From the NCBI GenBank assembly GCA_963780185.1, contig CAWABA010000009.1:64001-128000 (forward strand): a stretch of DNA of 64,000 bases. Direction: 5' to 3'. Under the pieces are notes generated by a model. That model had not been told where the DNA came from and did not search any database. It saw only the letters and a program-made list of their open reading frames with translations. Of this stretch, positions 3,662 through 59,005 are shown in pieces. A program made the position numbers and the translations under genes. Source of the DNA: Candidatus Bathyarchaeota archaeon. Lineage in GTDB: Archaea > Thermoproteota > Bathyarchaeia > Bathyarchaeales > Bathycorpusculaceae. Each line of letters starts with the position of its first letter. Position 1 is the stretch's first letter.

Positions 3662-3844
3662 AAACGATTTAGAACCTTCATCACTTTCTTCTATATTTTA
3701 AGTTCTGCTTATTTTCAAGTTAACGTTTCTTTGTGACTTTTTTAGAAATATCTCTTGCAAAACGTTTTTTTCTTTGTTTCTCCAATATATTGGTGAGTGA
3801 AACGTTGCGTTTTCACTTCTGTTTTTAGGACAAAATGCGTAGAA

Positions 3845-3952
3845 GGGCTGAGAAGGCTCTGGTTCAATTCGCGATTTTAGTTGCAGAAATCGTGAAGGAA
3901 AGCTTTTGAATTTTTTTCTTTCTCCTTTACGGTCCAGAGCCTCAGCAAACCC
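3845..3952 (+). repeat. Dispersed hairpin element B, copy 1 (BHB-like or MITE-like)
   Basis: Left arm GGGCTGAGAAGGCTCTGGT (3845-3863) and right arm CCAGAGCCTCAGCAAACCC (3934-3952) both recur exactly, inverted, at 35388-35482. Confidence 0.88.
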
Positions 3953-3954
3953 AA

Positions 3955-6012
3955 CTAAACCGCTTTTTCAGCAATAGTTCCCTTAGTGTAGGGTACGAAT
4001 TCCCGGATTTGCTCAATCGACGTCTTGCCCGTTTTTTCCCGTTGTTCCTTTGGCAACTTCACCATTAGCGACCTAAGTATCTTCTGAAGAAGCTCCTTGC
4101 CCACGTAATCACCCGGCAACAAAACAACGTAGGCTTTGGTTTTTGCTTTCACCGCCTCCAACGGTCCGCCGATGAAGCTTGCTTCCTCATTAATGATTAT
4201 GCCTACAGCAACTTTGAGTGGTACTCCTCTTATCCAGTTGCGTTTGCCCACGACTGCGAAGGCGCCGTGGGGGACAGATTCGCCTGAAGGGCCGCTTTTG
4301 CTAAGTTGATCAACTTTTACCCAGTAGACGTCGGCTGAACCCGCGTTTTCTCGCCAGGCACGGGAAAAAGACGCTGCGAACTCGGCGGCTTCACGGAGCG
4401 CTTGTTCACTTATGGTTTTTCCTTCGGCTTTAACAACTACGAAGGGGGCTCCTGAAACCTCAGCATGGAAAACCGCATCTTCCTGCGCAGCATACTTTTT
4501 CACGAGAACCTCGTTGCTGACTGTATCTTTGCCTGCAACCACCAAAAAGCCGTCGGAAGAAGTGAACCAGCGGAATTTCTCGTACCACTCCCTATTCTCC
4601 GTCTCCACTTTACGTTTAGCAAGCGCCTCCATAAGCGCCGCGGGCTTGAGACTTTTCAGCTCTTCAGCCGCCTTCAGTTCCCTCTCAATCTTAACTAGCT
4701 TCCTCTTGGAATCCTCTAGTGCCGATAGGGCACCTTGGGCTTTCTGCTTGGCTTTCTTTCCCCGTTCATAGTAGCCGTTGGCGTTCTCGAAAAGTGAATC
4801 CCGAAGGCTAAAACTGAACTGGAAGCTGTCCATGCAGAGGTTAAGCGCGAGGTTGCGTCCGTCAAACGATTGAATGTAGGCTTCAGGTACGCAGCCTGCT
4901 TTTTTAGCCGCTAATGCCTCCTCAATTACTACTTCCCAATCTTTGCCTGCTCGGTTTGCATTCACAAGCTTATCCTGAAACATTTGGAGTTCGTTAAAGT
5001 GTGCGTATATGGCGTCTCCGACTAATTTGTCCCGCTCCGCCTTTGCTTCGTCTTCACGGATGGATTTTTCTTGTTCCGCAACCATCCTTCTTAGCCGTTC
5101 CGCTTCCAGCTTCAACTTGTCAGCTTCAACGCTGGAAAACGCGTTCTCAGCCGTGGTTACACGAAGATAAAACTCGTCTAAGGCTTGATTAAAAGCGCCG
5201 TAGTCTTGAGTTTTGAAGCCCTCGTAACGTTTAAGCCTAAGCGGCACCACATCCAAAAAGTTCTCTTCTGCGTCAAGAATTATGCTTGGCTCCAAGGTGG
5301 CTGCCGCAATCTTTGAAAGCAAACCCTGAAGGGCATCAAAAACCGCCTTAACCTCGTCGTCCGACAGGTTTTTGCATAGCTTGGCTTTTTTGACGCCGAC
5401 TCTAAGCAGCACTTCTTCCGCGTAAACTCCGCCGATGCCAAACATCCGCGCCATCGCCCTAACGACCTCGGTTTCTCCAGCGTTTTTCAGCGCATCCGCC
5501 ATTTCGGGCAGAGAAACTTTGAAGGGGTTCTTGCCGCTTGGAGGAGGAACCACCAAAACTTCGTTACGCAAGATGTTGCGGTCACGCATACGCTTAAGGA
5601 TCAGGGCTTGCCAAATCATGTTTGTGTCGTTTACCAAGATGAAGTTGCCTTCGCCGAAAAGCTCCACAACAAGCTTAAGCTCCCCCTCCTTGGTCCTGAA
5701 AGTCACCGAAACAATCCTTTCAAACTCATACTGGTCAATGCCCACTACCCATGCTCCACGCAAATACTTCCTCAAAGACATGCAGAAAGCAGGTGGAGCA
5801 GCTGGGCTTTCCTGAGCGTAAACCGTTGAATGTAACCTTCGTCCAGCTTCCATGACCAGGCGGATCGGCGGCAAGTTGGCTTTGTGAAGTTTGAAAACTA
5901 ATGTTTTTTCGTCAAGCTGGTAGATGTTGTTCACTCTGGAATCGCCTATCAAGCGCTTCAATTCGCTGGTGACGGCAGCAAGGTCGAAGCTTGAGAATTC
6001 TTTTTTGCGCAT
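3955..6012 (-). CDS. rqcH: Ribosome quality-control protein RqcH (NFACT/NEMF family)
   Basis: SSFDLAAV N-terminus, FCMSLRKYL, ELFGEGN, HhH GIGGVYAEE, WYEKFRWFTSSDG, FHAEVSGAP, SKSGPSGE. Start moved to MRKKEF (6012). Confidence 0.93.
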   Translation of the reverse strand: MRKKEFSSFDLAAVTSELKRLIGDSRVNNIYQLDEKTLVFKLHKANLPPIRLVMEAGRRLHSTVYAQESPAAPPAFCMSLRKYLRGAWVVGIDQYEFERIVSVTFRTKEGELKLVVELFGEGNFILVNDTNMIWQALILKRMRDRNILRNEVLVVPPPSGKNPFKVSLPEMADALKNAGETEVVRAMARMFGIGGVYAEEVLLRVGVKKAKLCKNLSDDEVKAVFDALQGLLSKIAAATLEPSIILDAEENFLDVVPLRLKRYEGFKTQDYGAFNQALDEFYLRVTTAENAFSSVEADKLKLEAERLRRMVAEQEKSIREDEAKAERDKLVGDAIYAHFNELQMFQDKLVNANRAGKDWEVVIEEALAAKKAGCVPEAYIQSFDGRNLALNLCMDSFQFSFSLRDSLFENANGYYERGKKAKQKAQGALSALEDSKRKLVKIERELKAAEELKSLKPAALMEALAKRKVETENREWYEKFRWFTSSDGFLVVAGKDTVSNEVLVKKYAAQEDAVFHAEVSGAPFVVVKAEGKTISEQALREAAEFAASFSRAWRENAGSADVYWVKVDQLSKSGPSGESVPHGAFAVVGKRNWIRGVPLKVAVGIIINEEASFIGGPLEAVKAKTKAYVVLLPGDYVGKELLQKILRSLMVKLPKEQREKTGKTSIEQIREFVPYTKGTIAEKAV

Positions 6013-28121: not shown

Positions 28122-28185
28122 CGCCACCCAAAAAATAACCGTGTGGCTTTTAGCTAAAACGCGGTCGATCTGGTTAAGTTCAGAG

Positions 28186-28258
28186 TAGCCCGGGAGAGAT
28201 TCGAACTCTCGTCAGGGGGTCCAAAGCCCTCTATGCTTGACCACTACACCACCGGGCT
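28186..28258 (-). tRNA. tRNA-Gln(TTG), intronless, CCA not encoded
   Basis: AGCCCGGTGGTGTAGTGGTCAAGCATAGAGGGCTTTGGACCCCCTGACGAGAGTTCGAATCTCTCCCGGGCTA; acceptor stem with A1:U72, GTTCGAA T-loop, one A-C mismatch in the anticodon stem. Confidence 0.95.
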
Positions 28259-33186: not shown

Positions 33187-33450
33187 TCAGGTTTTTTGAG
33201 CTTCTTTTCCGTCCACGAATAATGTGATAGGCGAGAACGGTCCAGCGCTGATTTCCAAATGATGCTTTTCGGAATTTCCCACGTTCAACTGGAACTTCTT
33301 TGGCAGTGGCTGAAAGTTTGCTTCATTAACGACTTTTTCGCCATCCACTTCTATCTTGATGTATTTTAGAAGCGCGCTCGCATTAACAATAATGGTGTGT
33401 TTTTCAGTCTCTCCTATTTCAAACTTGGCTTTTGTCATTTTTTCAAACAT
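33187..33450 (-). CDS. Small beta-rich protein with internal duplication
   Basis: KF.xG..EKH...I...VDG.K repeated twice; follows the ABC permease. Confidence 0.75.
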   Translation of the reverse strand: MFEKMTKAKFEIGETEKHTIIVNASALLKYIKIEVDGEKVVNEANFQPLPKKFQLNVGNSEKHHLEISAGPFSPITLFVDGKEAQKT

Positions 33451-33466
33451 CCCTCTTCTAACTTTG

Positions 33467-34210
33467 CTACTTCCATTTTGTTAGTATTTCTTCCCTTCGG
33501 AAAGTGGTTGTGCTAACGTAGAACAGCGCCACATCAACCGCTAAAAGTATACCTGAGATGATAAGCAGGCCGTTTATGTCAAGGGTTATTATGCCTATCT
33601 CGCTGGTAAAATATATGCCCAGGAGTGGAAAGAACATAAAAATTCCAAAACTGTTGGCGCTGCGTACATCATTAACTCGCGATGAAACAATGACGCTGAA
33701 CAAAACACTCATAACAATGGCGACCGGCATCAAAACTATGAGCAAAGTGGCGATGTTCCAGTTTGGAAAATAATAGTAGCCAAGCGTATTGAAAGTAACC
33801 TCATCAATGCCCACCATGAAAACTACTGCAGCCGCATACATTGCTACTAAAGTTGGAATAATTGCGGAAATGGCTTTTCCAAGCAATATTTCTCCATCCG
33901 TAAGGGGCGTGGCTAGAAGCGGTTCTAGACTCTTCTCCACTTTCTCCCCCACTATACTGTAGGAGGCAATCCCCAAGGGAACGTACGCTGCTCCTATAAC
34001 TAAAAAGAAAGAAAAGGAGTTAAGCAAATTTGGAAGCACACCCGGCGCTGCGAGTCCGTGGCTCCCCCTTGCCGCTGCATACTCCAGTATCACAGGAAAC
34101 AGGACCGAGATAATAACGGGGAAAATAATAATTGAGGTCCAGACGTTTTTTACCCGCCTAAATATCTTAAAGTCCCTGGCTGCTATTAGCCATGCTTTCG
34201 ATAATCTCAT
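33467..34210 (-). CDS. ABC-2 type permease
   Basis: SIVGEKVEKSLEPLLATP; six TMs. Confidence 0.92.
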   Translation of the reverse strand: MRLSKAWLIAARDFKIFRRVKNVWTSIIIFPVIISVLFPVILEYAAARGSHGLAAPGVLPNLLNSFSFFLVIGAAYVPLGIASYSIVGEKVEKSLEPLLATPLTDGEILLGKAISAIIPTLVAMYAAAVVFMVGIDEVTFNTLGYYYFPNWNIATLLIVLMPVAIVMSVLFSVIVSSRVNDVRSANSFGIFMFFPLLGIYFTSEIGIITLDINGLLIISGILLAVDVALFYVSTTTFRREEILTKWK

Positions 34211-35130
34211 GCTTCTTTCCTCACAAGTTTTAGATAGGTATCTTCCAAAGTTGAGCCAACCACATTGATTGATCGGACATGACCGCCCGCCAACACTATG
34301 GCCTCTACAACTGACGAATTTTCTTTGTCTGGGTCTTCCACGGCAAATGTTATTGTGTCGCCGCCGGTGGACAGGTTTTTGAGCTCCAGTTTTTTCAGTG
34401 CCCCCAAAACCGCATCGTTCACTTGCTGTTCCAACCCGATAACTGTCTTCTTTCCGCCAACGGACTTTTCAAGTTCCTGCGGAGTACCAATTGCCCTAAG
34501 ACCCGTATTCATTATTGCTACCTTGTCGCAGATTCTCTGTGCCTCGTCGAGGTTGTGAGTGTTCAGGAAGATTGTCTTCTTCTCTTTTTTTAGTTGAAGA
34601 ATGAAATCTCGGACTGTTTTCGCAGCCTCAGGATCTAAATTTGCAGTAGGCTCGTCCATGAAAAGGACCTGTGGATCATGGATGAGGGCGCGGGCTATGG
34701 CGAGTTTTTGCTTCATTCCCTTGGAAAAGGTCCCAGCTAAAACGTTTCTCTTATCCCAAAGCCCTAACATCTCAAGAAAACGCTTATTGTTCTCTTTCCT
34801 TTGAGCATCGGAGCAGTCGTATATTTTTCCGTAAAAGTCCAAGTTGTCGTAAGCGGTCAGGTGTTCAGATAGCCCAACATTGTCAGGAACTAAACCGATG
34901 ATTTTGCGGATTTTAATTGAGTCTTCCTTTTTTCCTATGTCATAGCCGCCTATGTTTGCGTTCCCACTAGTTTTTGATATTAGGCAGCAAAGCATTCTGA
35001 TAGTTGTTGTTTTCCCTGCGCCATTCGGGCCGAGGAAACCGAAAACTTCGCCGTCGTTAACATGAAGGGTGAGTTTATCTACAGCAGTTAAATCTCCAAA
35101 TTTTTTGGTGAGGCTCTCAGTATCTATCAA
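34207..35130 (-). CDS. ABC transporter ATP-binding protein
   Basis: GPNGAGKTT, FSKGMKQK, MDEPT. Confidence 0.95.
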   Translation of the reverse strand: MIDTESLTKKFGDLTAVDKLTLHVNDGEVFGFLGPNGAGKTTTIRMLCCLISKTSGNANIGGYDIGKKEDSIKIRKIIGLVPDNVGLSEHLTAYDNLDFYGKIYDCSDAQRKENNKRFLEMLGLWDKRNVLAGTFSKGMKQKLAIARALIHDPQVLFMDEPTANLDPEAAKTVRDFILQLKKEKKTIFLNTHNLDEAQRICDKVAIMNTGLRAIGTPQELEKSVGGKKTVIGLEQQVNDAVLGALKKLELKNLSTGGDTITFAVEDPDKENSSVVEAIVLAGGHVRSINVVGSTLEDTYLKLVRKEA

Positions 35131-35387
35131 TGTGATTACCTTTCAGATGTAATGTTGCCGATTGCCTGCTATTAGAGTTGATGTTTCATAAATAATGTTG
35201 CATAGGTAACCAAATTTGTAATAGAACTTGTTAAGATGGCTGGAGCTGTTTTGTAACTGGCAGTGTTACATTAATTAATTATTTTCTAAGGGCTTAATGG
35301 CAGATGCAGCTAAAACCTTAGTTTGAAACTTGGCGTTGCCGCTGCGAGCGGAATTAGGTCGTGGTAGAAGTTCACATTTTTGCGGAA

Positions 35388-35482
35388 GGGTTTGCTGAGG
35401 CTCTGGCGAATTTCATTTTTTAAGGAAGAAAAAAGAAATCGCTTCTACACATGACTATTAGTGACCAGAGCCTTCTCAGCCC
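35388..35482 (-). repeat. Dispersed hairpin element B, copy 2
   Basis: On the minus strand it reads GGGCTGAGAAGGCTCTGGT...CCAGAGCCTCAGCAAACCC; arms identical to 3845-3952. Confidence 0.88.
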
Positions 35483-35554
35483 GCATTCTTTTTTCTCCGT
35501 TGTTTTTTTGGGGACTAAAAAAGGGGAAAGGGTATTTGTTTTCCCTTTCTGTTT

Positions 35555-38245
35555 TTATGGGTGTTTTCTCGTGACGAGCATTGCTAGAACTGCGCCGATT
35601 ATCACTATCACGACGATGATGGCGACGATGCCGTATTCAAGGGTGGCGTTGGATGCTAAACCTGTGGCTGGTGTTGCGGTTGGTACTGCTGTTGCATGTG
35701 GTGCGCCTGCGTAGAGGTATGTTGAGGCCGTTGAGCCGTAGTATGCATTTGTGCCTGCGAAGACTGCGTAGACGGTGTAGTTGCCGGAAATGTCTGGTGT
35801 CCATGTTAGACCCCAGTCGCCTAATGCGTTGGATGTTGTTGTGCCGATTGATCGGTAGTTGTTGTTGCTGTCTAAGACGTAGACGTTGATTGGTACGCCT
35901 GTCAGGTTGCTTGGCAGTGGCTGCTGCTCATAAGCTGCTTCCATAAGTCCAGTCATGCTGTCGTCGGAGACGCATGGCAGACCATTCGGGAAGTTCGCTG
36001 CAACTACAGGTTGCGAAGCGCCTGCAGAGATGTCTGTGATGCGTCCTGTCAGGGTTATTGGTGCATCTGTGGTTAGGCCTGTTTGGGGTGCGCTGATTGT
36101 TACTTTGGTGGGTCCTTGTGCGTATGCGTAGATTTGTCCGTCGTAACTGTTGAATGTGGTCATGACTCCGTATGCGACTGCGGTTGCTGTGTCGTCAAAG
36201 GCTAAGTTGTGCCAGAGCAGTTTGCCGGTGTTTGCGTCGAAGGCGTCCACTTGTGCTCCGTGGAACAACGGCGGGTCGTATTCATGTCCTTCACTTAGGT
36301 ATAGAACTGTGTCTGAGCCTGTTCCTGCGAGGGCTTCATCGTTGAAGACCCAGAGTGGATAGATTCCGTATGGAGATTCTGTGCCTGCTGGACCGTGAAG
36401 TTGGACGGTGCTCCAAGACCAAATGATTGCGCCGTTGGTCATGTTTACTGCCCACACGTCGCCGCCCAAGCCCCATACATACAGAACACCTGTGTTTGCA
36501 TCTGGTACTGTTGTGAGACCGAATGAGTCGTAGGGGTTCGGCATGTTGCCGTCAGCCATCGGAACATTCAAAGTGCTTTCCCATGCTTTCTTGCCAGTGT
36601 CAGCGTAGAAGCCATTCATATTGTACGAGTTGTAGTTGAGTTCGACGTAGATTCCGTCGCAGCATGTTGGAGTGTTGCTAACTCTTGTGTATGCCGGATA
36701 TAAGAAGGCGGCGTAATTCGAGTCACCAGTAACGTCTGTGCGGTTATAGATCCATTCCATGTGTCCGTCTGCCGTACTGAAGCCTGCTTCAACCTGCCAG
36801 CCTCTTTGTTCGCCTACTGAGACTGTTCCGGTTGTCATAATGATCGTGTTTGCTGACCACCAACTGCTGCTGAATCCGCCGGCTCCGAGTCCACTGACTA
36901 GTGCACCACCAAGAAGTGGATCCATTGGTTTTATCCACATGATTCCGTTCTTCCAGACGTATGCAGTGTTTAACGCGAAGCCATAGTTGAACGCGTTCTG
37001 GTAACCTAACGCTTGACTCATGTTCCAGAGTTCCAAATAAGATCCGTGTGTGGTGGCGTTTAATTGGTAGAGTGTGCTTCCGACGTACATGTTTCCGGTT
37101 GTGCTGTTTGTGAGGTAGCCGATGATGTTTCCATGTGAATCTTCACCAAACCATGTTGGAGCTGAGCCGTTAACGATGGCTACAAGGAATTGCCCTGTTA
37201 GACCGTCGAATATGTTGTATTCGGTGCCTGTGCTGTGCCAGCTAGGTGACATTCCGCCTGTTTGCGAAGCGGGCATCGTACCAGTGGTTACGATGAATGG
37301 ACCGACAACACCGTATTGGTTGATGTTTTCGAAGTCAGTAACCATTCCGCACCTTAGTACGGTGGTTGTGTTGATTACCCAATCTGTGGCTCCTGTGTAC
37401 AGGTTGATGCACATGATTCCTTGTTCGCTGCTTGTGGTTGAAGTGTACCACGTTGTGTATTCTCTTCCGTCGATTATGACTGGGGCATATTTAGGCTCGT
37501 ACTGTGAAGTTGTCCAGTAGCTGCTGAATTGCTCGCTTCCACCAAGTTCTCCGCCTGCAACTCCTCCAGCTAAGTATTCTTTGGTCCAGAGGATGTGCGA
37601 AGTTTTTGGTGCAGTCGTGTATGGGTTGTAGCTGCCTGTGGCGTTGTATTCACCTGTCGCAGCGAATGTGTTTGCTGCGTAGCCCAGCCATGCCCCCGTC
37701 AATTGGGACCATAGTTGGACGTTTTCTGCGTTGACTGGTGTTTGCCAGTAGGTTGTTGGAAACGGTGTGTCTGGTAATCCGCCTCTCGGCTCGGTTGTGA
37801 CAAGAAGTGTCATTTTTTCGCTTGTGCTTGGACCGTTGTAGTATGATGTGTAGCCAGTTTTCAAGTATGGTTGTCCTGCGTAGTCCATCCAGAAGGTGTA
37901 GTTGCCAGTGGCTGCGGGTGTGTATGTGGTCCAGGTTCCGCCAGTTAAGTCAGCCGTGAAGTTGCCCAGTTTCGTTGTTACTCCAGCGGGGGTCGTGACG
38001 TAGACACTCATGTTTGTGGCGTATTCGCTGTCATACATTGGGTTGGCTAGCCAGAAGTTGACTGTGACTTGTTGTCCGACTCCGCATGGGTTCGGGGCAA
38101 CGTTGCAGTAAGAGATGGTGGGGATGACGACTTGTCCTGCGGTCTGTGCGTGTGCGTTCGGTGCTATCATTGTTGATGCGCCCATAATGAAAATCATAAC
38201 GACAGATAGAACTATCGCTAAAAGTTTATTCTTTGTTCTCTTCAT
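35555..38245 (-). CDS. Large cell-surface PQQ-like beta-propeller protein with C-terminal TM anchor
   Basis: 896 aa; signal peptide, Ig-like ends, TG...W propeller repeats, many sequons, PTATP linker plus TM plus RK. Confidence 0.88.
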   Translation of the reverse strand: MKRTKNKLLAIVLSVVMIFIMGASTMIAPNAHAQTAGQVVIPTISYCNVAPNPCGVGQQVTVNFWLANPMYDSEYATNMSVYVTTPAGVTTKLGNFTADLTGGTWTTYTPAATGNYTFWMDYAGQPYLKTGYTSYYNGPSTSEKMTLLVTTEPRGGLPDTPFPTTYWQTPVNAENVQLWSQLTGAWLGYAANTFAATGEYNATGSYNPYTTAPKTSHILWTKEYLAGGVAGGELGGSEQFSSYWTTSQYEPKYAPVIIDGREYTTWYTSTTSSEQGIMCINLYTGATDWVINTTTVLRCGMVTDFENINQYGVVGPFIVTTGTMPASQTGGMSPSWHSTGTEYNIFDGLTGQFLVAIVNGSAPTWFGEDSHGNIIGYLTNSTTGNMYVGSTLYQLNATTHGSYLELWNMSQALGYQNAFNYGFALNTAYVWKNGIMWIKPMDPLLGGALVSGLGAGGFSSSWWSANTIIMTTGTVSVGEQRGWQVEAGFSTADGHMEWIYNRTDVTGDSNYAAFLYPAYTRVSNTPTCCDGIYVELNYNSYNMNGFYADTGKKAWESTLNVPMADGNMPNPYDSFGLTTVPDANTGVLYVWGLGGDVWAVNMTNGAIIWSWSTVQLHGPAGTESPYGIYPLWVFNDEALAGTGSDTVLYLSEGHEYDPPLFHGAQVDAFDANTGKLLWHNLAFDDTATAVAYGVMTTFNSYDGQIYAYAQGPTKVTISAPQTGLTTDAPITLTGRITDISAGASQPVVAANFPNGLPCVSDDSMTGLMEAAYEQQPLPSNLTGVPINVYVLDSNNNYRSIGTTTSNALGDWGLTWTPDISGNYTVYAVFAGTNAYYGSTASTYLYAGAPHATAVPTATPATGLASNATLEYGIVAIIVVIVIIGAVLAMLVTRKHP

Positions 38246-58012: not shown

Positions 58013-59005
58013 TCAACTCCCGTGTGCAACTGAGGTTTTTGATCCAAAGCCTTCTTGGCCCTCTTCGCCCAATCCCTTTCCAGTAAAATGGACAAAGACA
58101 TCATCCAAGGTGGGCTTCATTAGATTGACGCTGCATATTTCAATCCCTTCAGTTCTCAGGATGTCAATTAGTCTCGGTGTTAAATGCGCGTTCTCTTTGA
58201 AATGAATAATCAATCCTTCAGACGAACTCGAAATTTGATTTATGCCTGGTACATCTTTAATGAGTCGGGCTGCTTTCTCGTCATTATCAGTTTGCAGATG
58301 GATTCGGTCTTGTCCCAGAGAGTTTTTCAGGCTCTCGGATGAACCGTTCGCTATTATTTTTCCTTTATCAATTATGCAGACGGCGTCGCTGTTTTGGTCC
58401 GCTTCATCCATATAATGGGTGGTTAGGAAAATCGTGACTCCCTCCGAATTGACCTTTTTTATGTATGACCAAATCCGCCTTCTTGTTTGAGTGTCTAAAC
58501 CTATTGTGGGTTCGTCAAGAAACAGAATTTGCGGTCTTGTTAGAAGCCCTCTCGCGATTTCGAGGCGACGCTTCATGCCGCCGCTGAGGTTCTTGGCAAA
58601 TTCATTCTTCTTATCAGTCAATTCGACCAATTCAATGAGTTCATCTATTCGGGGTCGTCGGACATCTTTTGGAAGCGAATATATTCTTCCATGAAAATCC
58701 ATCGTTTCCCACACTGTGAGGTCCCTATCGAGCCTTTGGTCCTGAAAAACAACTCCTATGGATTTACGAACCTTGTCCCGTTCATTTGTTACGTCAAACC
58801 CTGAGATTGTTACCCTGCCTTTCTGTATCGGCAGCAGGGTTATTAGCAAATTGATTGTAGTTGTTTTTCCCGCACCGTTTGGTCCTAAAAACGAGAATAT
58901 CTGCCCCTTTTCAACGCAGAAGCTGATGTCGTTAACAGCAACGAGTTTCCCGTAATTGTAGCAGAGTCCTTCAACCGATATTATTGGGTCTCCCATAACT
59001 ATCAC
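58013..59005 (-). CDS. ABC transporter ATP-binding protein (DrrA-like)
   Basis: GPNGAGKTT, LSGGMKRRLEIAR, LDEPT, TTHYMDEA, PTLDDVF. Confidence 0.95.
   Translation of the reverse strand: MIVMGDPIISVEGLCYNYGKLVAVNDISFCVEKGQIFSFLGPNGAGKTTTINLLITLLPIQKGRVTISGFDVTNERDKVRKSIGVVFQDQRLDRDLTVWETMDFHGRIYSLPKDVRRPRIDELIELVELTDKKNEFAKNLSGGMKRRLEIARGLLTRPQILFLDEPTIGLDTQTRRRIWSYIKKVNSEGVTIFLTTHYMDEADQNSDAVCIIDKGKIIANGSSESLKNSLGQDRIHLQTDNDEKAARLIKDVPGINQISSSSEGLIIHFKENAHLTPRLIDILRTEGIEICSVNLMKPTLDDVFVHFTGKGLGEEGQEGFGSKTSVAHGS

Follow-up and report, generated by a model that had tools for sequence, protein, structure and literature searches.

The window analyzed here is a stretch of 64,000 nucleotides (nt) from a Candidatus Bathyarchaeota archaeon and forms part of contig C9 in a genome of 2.75 Mb and 13 contigs. 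It holds two copies of a short hairpin element in which conserved arms enclose an interior. Copy 1 (3845–3952, plus strand; 5′ arm GGGCTGAGAAGGCTCTGG, 3′ arm CCAGAGCCTCAGCAAACCC) lies between a ferredoxin-like iron-sulfur (Fe-S) gene and a converging NFACT gene, with no surface-protein gene at that site. Copy 2 (35388–35482), which follows a surface-protein gene, carries both arms of copy 1 without a mismatch as their reverse complement and is thus on the minus strand. This exact match agrees with a first-pass annotation of the same DNA, made from the letters alone, which had described the arms as identical in the two copies and was silent on the orientation of copy 2. Shuffled sequences predict 0.05 and 0.04 chance matches per arm, and none of the shuffles reached the observed count. 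The closing stem of the element is shaped like a bulge-helix-bulge (BHB), and its interior is antisense to translation start regions of the surface-protein family to which it is linked; because these two features coincide, we regard the element as a probable regulatory RNA.

Full copies with no more than three mismatches per arm number six in the genome. A covariance model built from the arms and the interior (R1) adds two diverged copies, C3:33507–33599 and C4:92925–93023, which brings the genome to eight loci, and the arm search and the model together bear out the view of the annotation that this hairpin is dispersed and conserved. Of 61 related genomes, 15 contain the exact arm pattern, every one of them of the same genus. 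At E ≤ 0.01, R1 finds about 766 matches spread over 87 of the 101 genomes sampled within the genus (at most 28 per genome); some of these copies form tandem arrays with a spacing of 4–5 kb, and one relative has seven. A class-wide sample gave matches in nine of 141 genomes, among them members of three other genera of the family, two of four genomes from a second family of the order and one more distant genome with a weak match. Rfam 15 yielded no match to the element in the window, where a tRNA was the only match, and a search of four other copies at E ≤ 1 returned only two chance matches far below threshold. The alignment statistics that follow were drawn from 72 distinct rows, or from 71 once a match on the opposite strand at an already counted locus had been removed. 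The diverged copy at C4:92925–93023 has more symmetric arms than the others (39.2 bits on the minus strand and 29.7 bits on the plus strand), and no gene for an anchored protein stands in front of it.

Comparison of these rows led to a revision of the fold. The structure in the annotation, with CUGA/UCAG at its center, pairs 96.7% of the cells (72 rows), and its pair A10–U171 proved to be A-U in 57 rows and unpaired in 15. The alternative pair 14–171 covaries (A-U 49, G-C 13, G-U 7, other 1), which makes the inner helix 9 bp long and moves the register by one pair. In the corrected register 98.0% of the cells are paired, 10 of the 15 pairs have changed on both sides, and none of 500 shuffles was as good (72 rows). 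The inner helix has the consensus RGGCUCUGG/CCAGAGCCY, and seven of its eight further pairs have changed on both sides. Its length varies from 9 to 12 bp over the copies; in diverged copies it is fully rewritten, as in CCUAGCAC/GUGCUAGG, or carries compensated insertions. RNAfold predicts GCUG/CAGC for copies with C at column 171. On the gene-sense strand, G·U outnumbers A·C by 34 to 10 (71 rows), or by 27 to 7 when the terminal pair is left out. Since both kinds arise by transitions, this excess argues that the gene-sense strand is the one that folds, as fits an RNA best. The copies in the window fold better than most shuffles on either strand (z −2.0 to −3.0). The remnants of a longer ancestral stem that the annotation had seen in the flanks could not be upheld, as the mean pairing of a flank with its own partner is 2.7 bp versus 2.6 bp across copies (3.0 bp versus 2.7 bp in the other register). 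None of K-turn, H/ACA, C/D box, hammerhead and SECIS fits the arms when their consensus features are compared by eye. Coding on the sense strand was likewise rejected: the ATG near the 5′ arm stands in differing frames between copies, and the stop codons differ.

The corrected arms read (G)GG-GCUG-[A G A/U]-inner helix on the 5′ side and inner helix-CAGC-[AAA]-CC(C) on the 3′ side. The central helix, GCUG/CAGC, comprises 4 bp, three of which (7–175, 8–174 and 9–173) are formed in 100% of cells, whereas G6–C176 is present in 70 of 71 copies; one compensated change from U-A to C-G produces GCCG/CGGC. The bulge on the 5′ strand measures 3 nt in 70 of 71 copies (AGA in 46, AGU in 17), and unpaired C-AAA is found on the 3′ strand in 66 of 71, so that the asymmetry which the annotation had noticed in both copies reaches well past these two. 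Each bulge lies 3′ of the central helix. This handedness is the same as that of the BHB in the genome's own intron-bearing tRNA-Met, from which, with borders set by ARAGORN, the canonical arrangement was derived. One strand of the tRNA-Met precursor runs from the anticodon stem through a 4-bp helix and a 3-nt bulge into the inner helix, the other strand is its mirror image, and the splice sites follow the second bulge base. A BHB has been described as a 4-bp helix flanked by two 3-nt bulges (PMC7714728). Most copies read in other genera and in the second family have the form GGGGCUG-AAA...CAGC-AAA-CCC, a symmetric 3-4-3 arrangement with an outer helix of 3 bp. The BHB-like closing stem proposed in the annotation therefore stands, and it is closer to the canonical motif (3-nt bulge, 4 bp, 3-nt bulge) than had been stated; the proposed bulges GAA and CAAA give way to AGW and AAA, 3 nt each.

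The archaeal splicing endonuclease EndA, which recognizes the BHB geometry, is represented in the genome by two open frames matching PF01974 (98.6 and 81.6 bits; 206 and 123 amino acids), in the regions C6:75058–75297 and C6:673031–673285. This profile matched archaeal control genomes only, so that the two homologues favor an archaeal origin of the genome. The genome also has a homologue of the ligase RtcB. The (αβ)2 form of EndA in TACK archaea accepts a broader range of BHB motifs, and the paper that states this names, as substrates other than tRNA and rRNA, only the intron of cbf5 mRNA and an intron in the 5′ untranslated region (UTR) of HVO_1309 (PMC7714728).

The position of the element relative to genes is constrained. 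A same-strand open reading frame (ORF) for an anchored protein ends 48–316 nt upstream in 51 of the 71 distinct copies, and for 48 of these 51 the distance from stop codon to element is 48–93 nt; in the mirrored control, an anchored ORF converges from downstream in 10 of 71. One gene-linked case beyond the 51 is known, and its flank was too short for the count. In 20 of the 71 copies there is no anchored gene in front. These figures bear out the assignment of the element to the sense strand of the upstream gene. The linked genes belong to one family, a tie that the annotation had missed, and their products are 840–1000 amino acids long, with signal-peptide-like N-termini and, at the C-terminus, a hydrophobic membrane anchor followed by basic residues (type ...IIVVIVIIGAVLAMLVTRKHP). 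The member in the window (35555–38245) gave only a weak match to a PQQ_2/BamB-like β-propeller. Behind the gene the order is stop codon, a conserved CCCTTTTTTAG run, a purine-rich leader of 28–39 nt, and the element, and conservation breaks off abruptly with the final C of the 3′ arm. Beyond it, the flanks of different copies have nothing in common, save at one syntenic locus beside a tRNA gene. A conserved 3′ tail with a T8 run, seen in some copies, was rejected as part of the element, being due to synteny at this one orthologous tRNA-adjacent locus. The second family keeps the linkage: the element lies 42–53 nt past ...KRK, and anchor and arms have both diverged.

Measured interiors are 71 nt in copy 1 and 58 nt in copy 2, close to the 70 and 57 nt first estimated. 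They align poorly save for a pyrimidine tract, as the annotation had reported for a T-rich tract; its view that they otherwise differ does not extend to architecture, which is conserved and common to the interiors. A variable hairpin comes first; a second one follows, whose stem covaries and whose loop is UUUGCAUUU, and then CUUUUCUCCU(A/U)AA, which can alternatively occupy the loop of a U-rich/A-rich hairpin. Half of the interior, when reverse-complemented, reads as the Shine-Dalgarno (SD) sequence and then the AUG of the surface-protein family. The complement of the AUG (anti-AUG) lies within UUUGCAUUU and that of the SD (anti-SD) is CUCCU; both are often found in hairpin loops, and minimum-free-energy folding leaves most of the anti-SD unpaired in 47 of 67 copies. 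The interior is thus antisense to the translation start regions of the family, a feature absent from the annotation, and this changes the probable purpose of the element.

Individual matches between interiors and start regions, the latter identified here by contig and position, are long. The element on C3 matches paralogue C6:929189 at 21 of 21 bases (−18 to +2), and the element on C11 matches the same paralogue at 17 of 17. The C7 element and C1:110272 share 18 of 18 bases, or 28 of 32 identical columns when gaps of 1 and 3 nt are allowed, and the C6 element matches C9:198244 at 19 of 20. In the window, local alignment of copy 1 (3905–3929) with C1:110272 covers −17 to +6 with 23 of 25 identical columns, two mismatches and one gap. 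Copy 2 (35420–35438) matches C6:929189 at 18 of 19 bases and C6:217995 at 13 of 13, and the same 13 bases occur in the start region of its own upstream gene. When the eight interiors were searched against the whole genome with blastn-short, 12 non-self matches were obtained, four of which are other elements. Of the eight outside elements, four fall on the family's start regions, in each case in the antisense direction relative to the mRNA (best E 2.5e-5), and the remaining four are unrelated 16-mers with E of about 0.03.

Predicted duplex energies point in the same direction. Over 22 gene-element pairs from five genomes, the duplex between a start region and the interior of its own element averages −17.5 kcal/mol, compared with −11.6 for reversed and −11.8 (SD 3.7) for shuffled start regions; three pairs have strong own-gene duplexes (−26.9, −21.8 and −20.6). 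Among 994 candidate starts in the genome that bear an SD sequence (mean −13.5, SD 2.5), paralogues of the family rank 2, 6, 10 and 25. The start region of C1:110272 averages −20.5 with six element interiors and reaches −23.2 with copy 1. Five paralogues that lack an element and have a findable start (C1:110272, C5:128054, C6:926023, C6:929189 and C9:198244) are the most complementary to the elements, at −16.2 to −24.3, whereas three element-bearing paralogues with a callable start lie near background, at −11.5 to −15.0. Both samples are small, and the pattern fails in a second genome. In the second family, start regions and interiors have both changed and yet fit each other, with −19.9 within the clade and −10.9 to −12.4 across clades.

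The purine-rich leaders themselves (35483–35514 on the minus strand, 3829–3844 on the plus strand, and others) resemble a start region, with GGAG and an A-rich spacer, and they often hold an ATG 1–5 nt before the stem in no constant frame. A pseudoknot between the leader and the pyrimidine tract of the interior, which looked complementary, was considered and found no support, as own pairs (−12.1) did not surpass those with shuffled leaders (−11.3, SD 3.5) or with other flanks. The leader may serve as a spacer for a promoter or as a decoy, or it may be a relic.

Table 1. Coordinates of the two copies of the element and of associated features in the window.
Feature	Position	Strand	Basis or remark
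Copy 1, whole (stem P1 and interior)	3845–3952	+	Exact arms; covariance-model match of 89.7 bits at 3842–3955
Copy 1, outer helix, 5′ strand GG	3845–3846	+	Partner C3950–C3951 in the BHB register; columns 4–5 with 182–183, alignment A4
Copy 1, central 4-bp helix, 5′ strand GCUG	3847–3850	+	Partner CAGC 3943–3946
Copy 1, 5′-strand bulge AGA, 3 nt	3851–3853	+	Predicted EndA cut after 3852, by analogy with the tRNA intron (tRNA-Met BHB)
Copy 1, inner helix, 5′ strand AGGCUCUGG	3854–3862	+	Partner 3934–3942; covariation
Copy 1, anti-start segment	3905–3929	+	Reverse complement of the SD/AUG region of paralogue C1:110272
Copy 1, inner helix, 3′ strand CCAGAGCCU	3934–3942	+	Covariation
Copy 1, central helix, 3′ strand CAGC	3943–3946	+	Pairing, conservation
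Copy 1, 3′-strand bulge AAA	3947–3949	+	Predicted EndA cut after 3948
Copy 1, outer helix, 3′ strand CCC	3950–3952	+	Sharp end of conserved sequence
Copy 1, T-run TGTTTTTAG, with a hairpin at 3797–3816 before it	3820–3828	+	Counterpart of the terminator-like CCCTTTTTTAG at other copies
Copy 2, whole	35388–35482	−	Exact reverse-complement arms; model match of 70.5 bits
Copy 2, 5′ arm	35465–35482	−	GG 35482–35481, GCUG 35480–35477, AGA bulge 35476–35474, inner helix 35473–35465; predicted EndA cut after 35475
Copy 2, 3′ arm	35388–35406	−	Inner helix 35406–35398, CAGC 35397–35394, AAA bulge 35393–35391, CCC 35390–35388; predicted EndA cut after 35392
Copy 2, anti-start segment	35420–35438	−	Antisense to the SD region of paralogues C6:929189 and C6:217995
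Copy 2, purine-rich leader	35483–35514	−	Just upstream of the 5′ arm
Copy 2, conserved T-run CCCCTTTTTTAG	35515–35526	−	Follows the stop codon of the surface-protein gene
Surface-protein gene, 896 amino acids; signal-peptide-like N-terminus, C-terminal membrane anchor ...IIVVIVIIGAVLAMLVTRKHP	35555–38245	−	Copy 2 lies 73 nt past the stop

Taken together, these features suggest a model in which the element, about 100 nt long and encoded on the sense strand, acts as a structured RNA module that is probably cut by EndA at the BHB and would mask the starts of paralogous mRNAs; we put the probability of this reading at roughly 0.5. For transcription, cleavage, circularization and repression we infer the following course. 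Transcription would run in the same direction as the gene, with polymerase either passing the T-run or starting at a TATA-like box within the leader, and after folding of the RNA, EndA would cut both bulges. An interior of 83–96 nt would thereby be released and probably circularized by RtcB. The released RNA could then pair with the SD and AUG of mRNAs from sister paralogues or from its own gene, and such pairing would block the initiation of translation, allowing members of the family to control one another. With regard to a promoter, a TCTTAAAAAG box that resembles the TATA-like boxes of the genome's tRNA genes ends about 20 nt before the stem in the main subtype; the copies in the window lack it. 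One may speculate further that excision at the BHB by EndA yields a stable circle of about 90 nt, closed by RtcB, whose exposed anti-SD and anti-AUG loops silence sister paralogues; one expressed member would in this way turn off the rest, as a post-transcriptional mutual-exclusion or surface-variation switch built on the tRNA-splicing machinery, but in this complete form we think the proposal doubtful.

Several observations weigh against the processed antisense RNA. With respect to the stem, the 4-bp central helix requires that G6 pair with C176 and not with C182, two partners that covariation cannot separate, and RNAfold prefers the register of the annotation for copies with U at column 171, for which the alternative registers are about equal in stability. 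The outer helix is short within the genus (of 71 copies, 57 have 2 bp or more and 32 have 3 bp) and is not lengthened by the flanks. The sequence of the bulges and of the central helix hardly varies, a constancy that EndA does not require and that may point to another, sequence-specific binding protein. The RtcB profile PF01139 matches in three adjacent frame pieces. As for the interior, purine-rich start regions meet a pyrimidine-rich segment, so that part of the signal is compositional; complementarity within the genus is close for own and for cross-copy combinations (−17.5 versus −15.8); the covariation between clades amounts to one deep contrast; and minimum-free-energy folding leaves most of the anti-AUG free in only 25 of 51 copies. 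Only six of the 11 surface-protein paralogues in this genome are followed by an element. On the side of expression, the conserved T-run between gene and element may terminate most transcripts, and a separate promoter is suggested solely by the TATA-like box of one subtype. The sole RNA run found covers just 33400–35236, the ABC-transporter genes of relatives. This run (X1) consists of contigs from a peat metatranscriptome that contained 5% of the sampled words, and it says nothing on expression; at 85% likeness its depth is at most 1.2 over 35237–35904 and zero beyond, with no joints, so that element and surface gene are essentially uncovered.

An alternative that shares the RNA level is a cis-acting 3′-UTR element that EndA does not process. 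Here the element would be transcribed by read-through only and stay on the mRNA, where the stem would protect the 3′ end and the anti-start segment would fold onto the start of the same mRNA, giving autoregulation or a coupling of read-through and translation; the BHB-like shape would be the binding site of another protein or incidental. The fixed same-strand position 48–93 nt past the stop in 48 copies, the three strong own-gene duplexes and the RNA run, made up of contigs without element coverage or reported joints, are all compatible with this idea, and the near invariance of bulges and central helix suggests a sequence-specific partner as opposed to the structure-specific EndA. Against it, the 3-4-3 geometry and its handedness are kept at order-level divergence while the inner helix is wholly rewritten, which is more than a protective stem needs. 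In addition, 20 of 71 copies lack an anchored gene in front, the best-matching starts in this genome belong to paralogues other than the carrier of the element, and a conserved terminator-like T-run separates gene and element. We consider an unprocessed, cis-acting element unlikely. The opposite strand might instead be the functional one, an inverted start region of the family (SD plus AUG) from which a tiny ORF is expressed or an antisense transcript runs back over the gene's 3′ end. A good SD and AUG are indeed conserved in 54 of 70 units and resemble strong start regions of the family. The resulting ORFs, however, are 1–44 amino acids long and enter the arm in all three frames (21, 20 and 13 where scorable), and they share no conserved peptide past the first residues, which nucleotide conservation fixes. 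The ratio of G·U to A·C favors the gene-sense strand, no TATA-like box was noted in that direction when the flanks were read, and the downstream flanks are unrelated, all of which makes this explanation very improbable.

Two further explanations treat the element as DNA. The annotation had itself raised the possibility of a miniature inverted-repeat transposable element (MITE), that is, non-autonomous mobile DNA with imperfect terminal inverted repeats, here with a preference for sites past terminators. The element is short, dispersed, intergenic and multi-copy, with conserved imperfect inverted arms around a variable center, as are MITEs and REP-like palindromes; only some paralogues have it (6 of 11), no such gene accompanies 20 of 71 copies, and both loci in the window are lineage-specific when compared with orthologous loci in relatives. 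Unlike a MITE, it has no target-site duplications (direct repeats of 3–8 nt at slid boundaries are the same for a copy's own flanks as for cross-copy controls), and its orientation and distance to one upstream gene family are fixed (51 of 71 versus 10 of 71 in the control). No longer element or insertion sequence with the same ends, and no transposase-type parent, was found in this genome, the only one searched for them; each arm, at up to three mismatches, occurs there only in the short copies or in chance partial matches inside genes. Moreover, the helix covaries with a wobble bias on the sense strand, the conserved interior fits the family's start regions, and orthologous empty sites show no clean insertion, as the whole intergenic region differs. 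A mobile origin of this kind is thus largely refuted and seems hardly credible. The other explanation is a recombination site, similar to attC or a shufflon, that moves cassettes of surface-protein genes. Like the attC sites of integrons, the element is an imperfect dyad with conserved unpaired bases and a variable center at the 3′ end of genes in one orientation; it also occurs in tandem arrays (seven copies 4–5 kb apart in one relative), and the number of units at the Fe-S/NFACT locus varies from none in eight genomes to two in one. Yet no tyrosine recombinase (PF00589) stands beside the arrays in the three genomes checked, in which the nearest strong match is about 20 kb from the arrays and two sub-threshold matches lie 2–4 kb from copies. 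All would-be cassettes belong to a single gene family, none of 70 copies read has an inverted interior, the attC core consensus is not visible in the arms, and complementarity to starts would have no role in recombination. We regard such a site as extremely unlikely.

Excised RNAs flanked by a BHB and small RNAs (sRNAs) that mask a ribosome-binding site are both known kinds. The introns closest to the EndA-cut RNA that we favor are two BHB-flanked ones outside tRNA and rRNA: one in crenarchaeal cbf5 mRNA, the other, 46 nt long, in the 5′ UTR of Haloferax HVO_1309, from which EndA excises it and which yields it as a circle (PMC7714728). These introns and the element share two 3-nt bulges on opposite strands with 4 bp between them, a location in or beside an mRNA as opposed to a stable RNA, and an excised piece, expected in the case of the element, of tens of nt that can be circularized. 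The single-copy introns are located within coding sequence or a 5′ UTR, whereas the element has several to 28 copies per genome, sits downstream of both a stop codon and a T-run, and is linked to one family of paralogues; its interior is antisense to the starts of that family, and its outer helix has only 2–3 bp. Cleavage has been shown for the introns and is predicted from sequence for the element. Introns of tRNA and the processing stems of pre-rRNA (hBHBh′) have the geometry and handedness of the element. Unlike them, the element has exons without a tRNA or rRNA context, and its bulges and central helix are near-invariant over hundreds of copies, whereas tRNA BHBs vary in sequence. A likeness to the genome's own 16S processing stem was looked for in the arms, and there was no resemblance. 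With regard to the interior, sRNA162 of Methanosarcina mazei, a trans-acting RNA reported to mask ribosome-binding sites, is likewise complementary to the SD and start-codon region of its targets (PMC3510493). The anti-SD and anti-AUG of the element are partly exposed in loops. The element differs from sRNA162 in being multi-copy, attached to genes of the target family and enclosed by a BHB, and its regulatory role is predicted from sequence.

Full-text searches of the literature turned up no description of BHB closure combined with an antisense payload, of a multi-copy attachment 3′ of one surface-protein family or of order-wide conservation, although absence from the literature is not thereby proven. 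A BHB-closed element that is multi-copy and conserved would represent a new class of candidate EndA substrate, and it is present in most sampled genomes of a widespread uncultured archaeal genus as well as in a neighboring family. The antisense payload offers a testable idea for BHB excision outside the maturation of tRNA and rRNA, namely the making of regulatory, possibly circular, RNAs, and it suggests a way for an archaeon to coordinate or alternate the expression of a large family of surface proteins. To our knowledge, almost nothing is known about such coordination outside cultured models. R1 can be used at once to annotate the family in metagenomes.

The locus of copy 1 was compared with those of relatives (loci L100, L102, L105, L107, L108, L109, L111 and L159). 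At Fe-S/NFACT, the genes of eight relatives are separated by a short stretch of other sequence without a gene-plus-element unit, and one complete relative has two surface genes inserted, each with an element. Because that relative has two such units at this locus, copy 1 is probably the remnant of a gene-plus-element unit. The intergenic region between the ferredoxin-like and NFACT genes (window 3662–3954) appears as a hot spot at which this genome keeps the element only. In the eight relatives the spacer measures 67–122 nt, and the seven that were read have a common AGCGC...GCGCT hairpin. Two relatives have about 2.1 kb inserted, with no element detected in the parts examined, and two others have 0.5 kb of other sequence. 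At the ABC-transporter (ABC) locus no element was found in 15 relatives, and precise boundaries between filled and empty sites could be derived at neither the Fe-S/NFACT nor the ABC locus.

A match to the 5′ arm with three mismatches occurs at 58044–58061 on the minus strand without a partner arm. We take it to be due to chance, because it lies about 50 nt before an ORF's stop codon and also looks like coding sequence in other respects. A tRNA-Gln (UUG) at 28185–28258 on the minus strand is the sole match in the window by Rfam or ARAGORN. Elsewhere in the genome, the longest match of the RtcB homologue (C7:221374–222687) holds one TGA and one TAA, and its pieces could be due to a frameshift in the gene, to faulty assembly or to inserted sequence, for example an intein. 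The surface-protein paralogue before the copy on C7 (C7:115723–118480) is also split, in this case into overlapping frames of 723 and 252 amino acids, through either a frameshift or a sequencing error.

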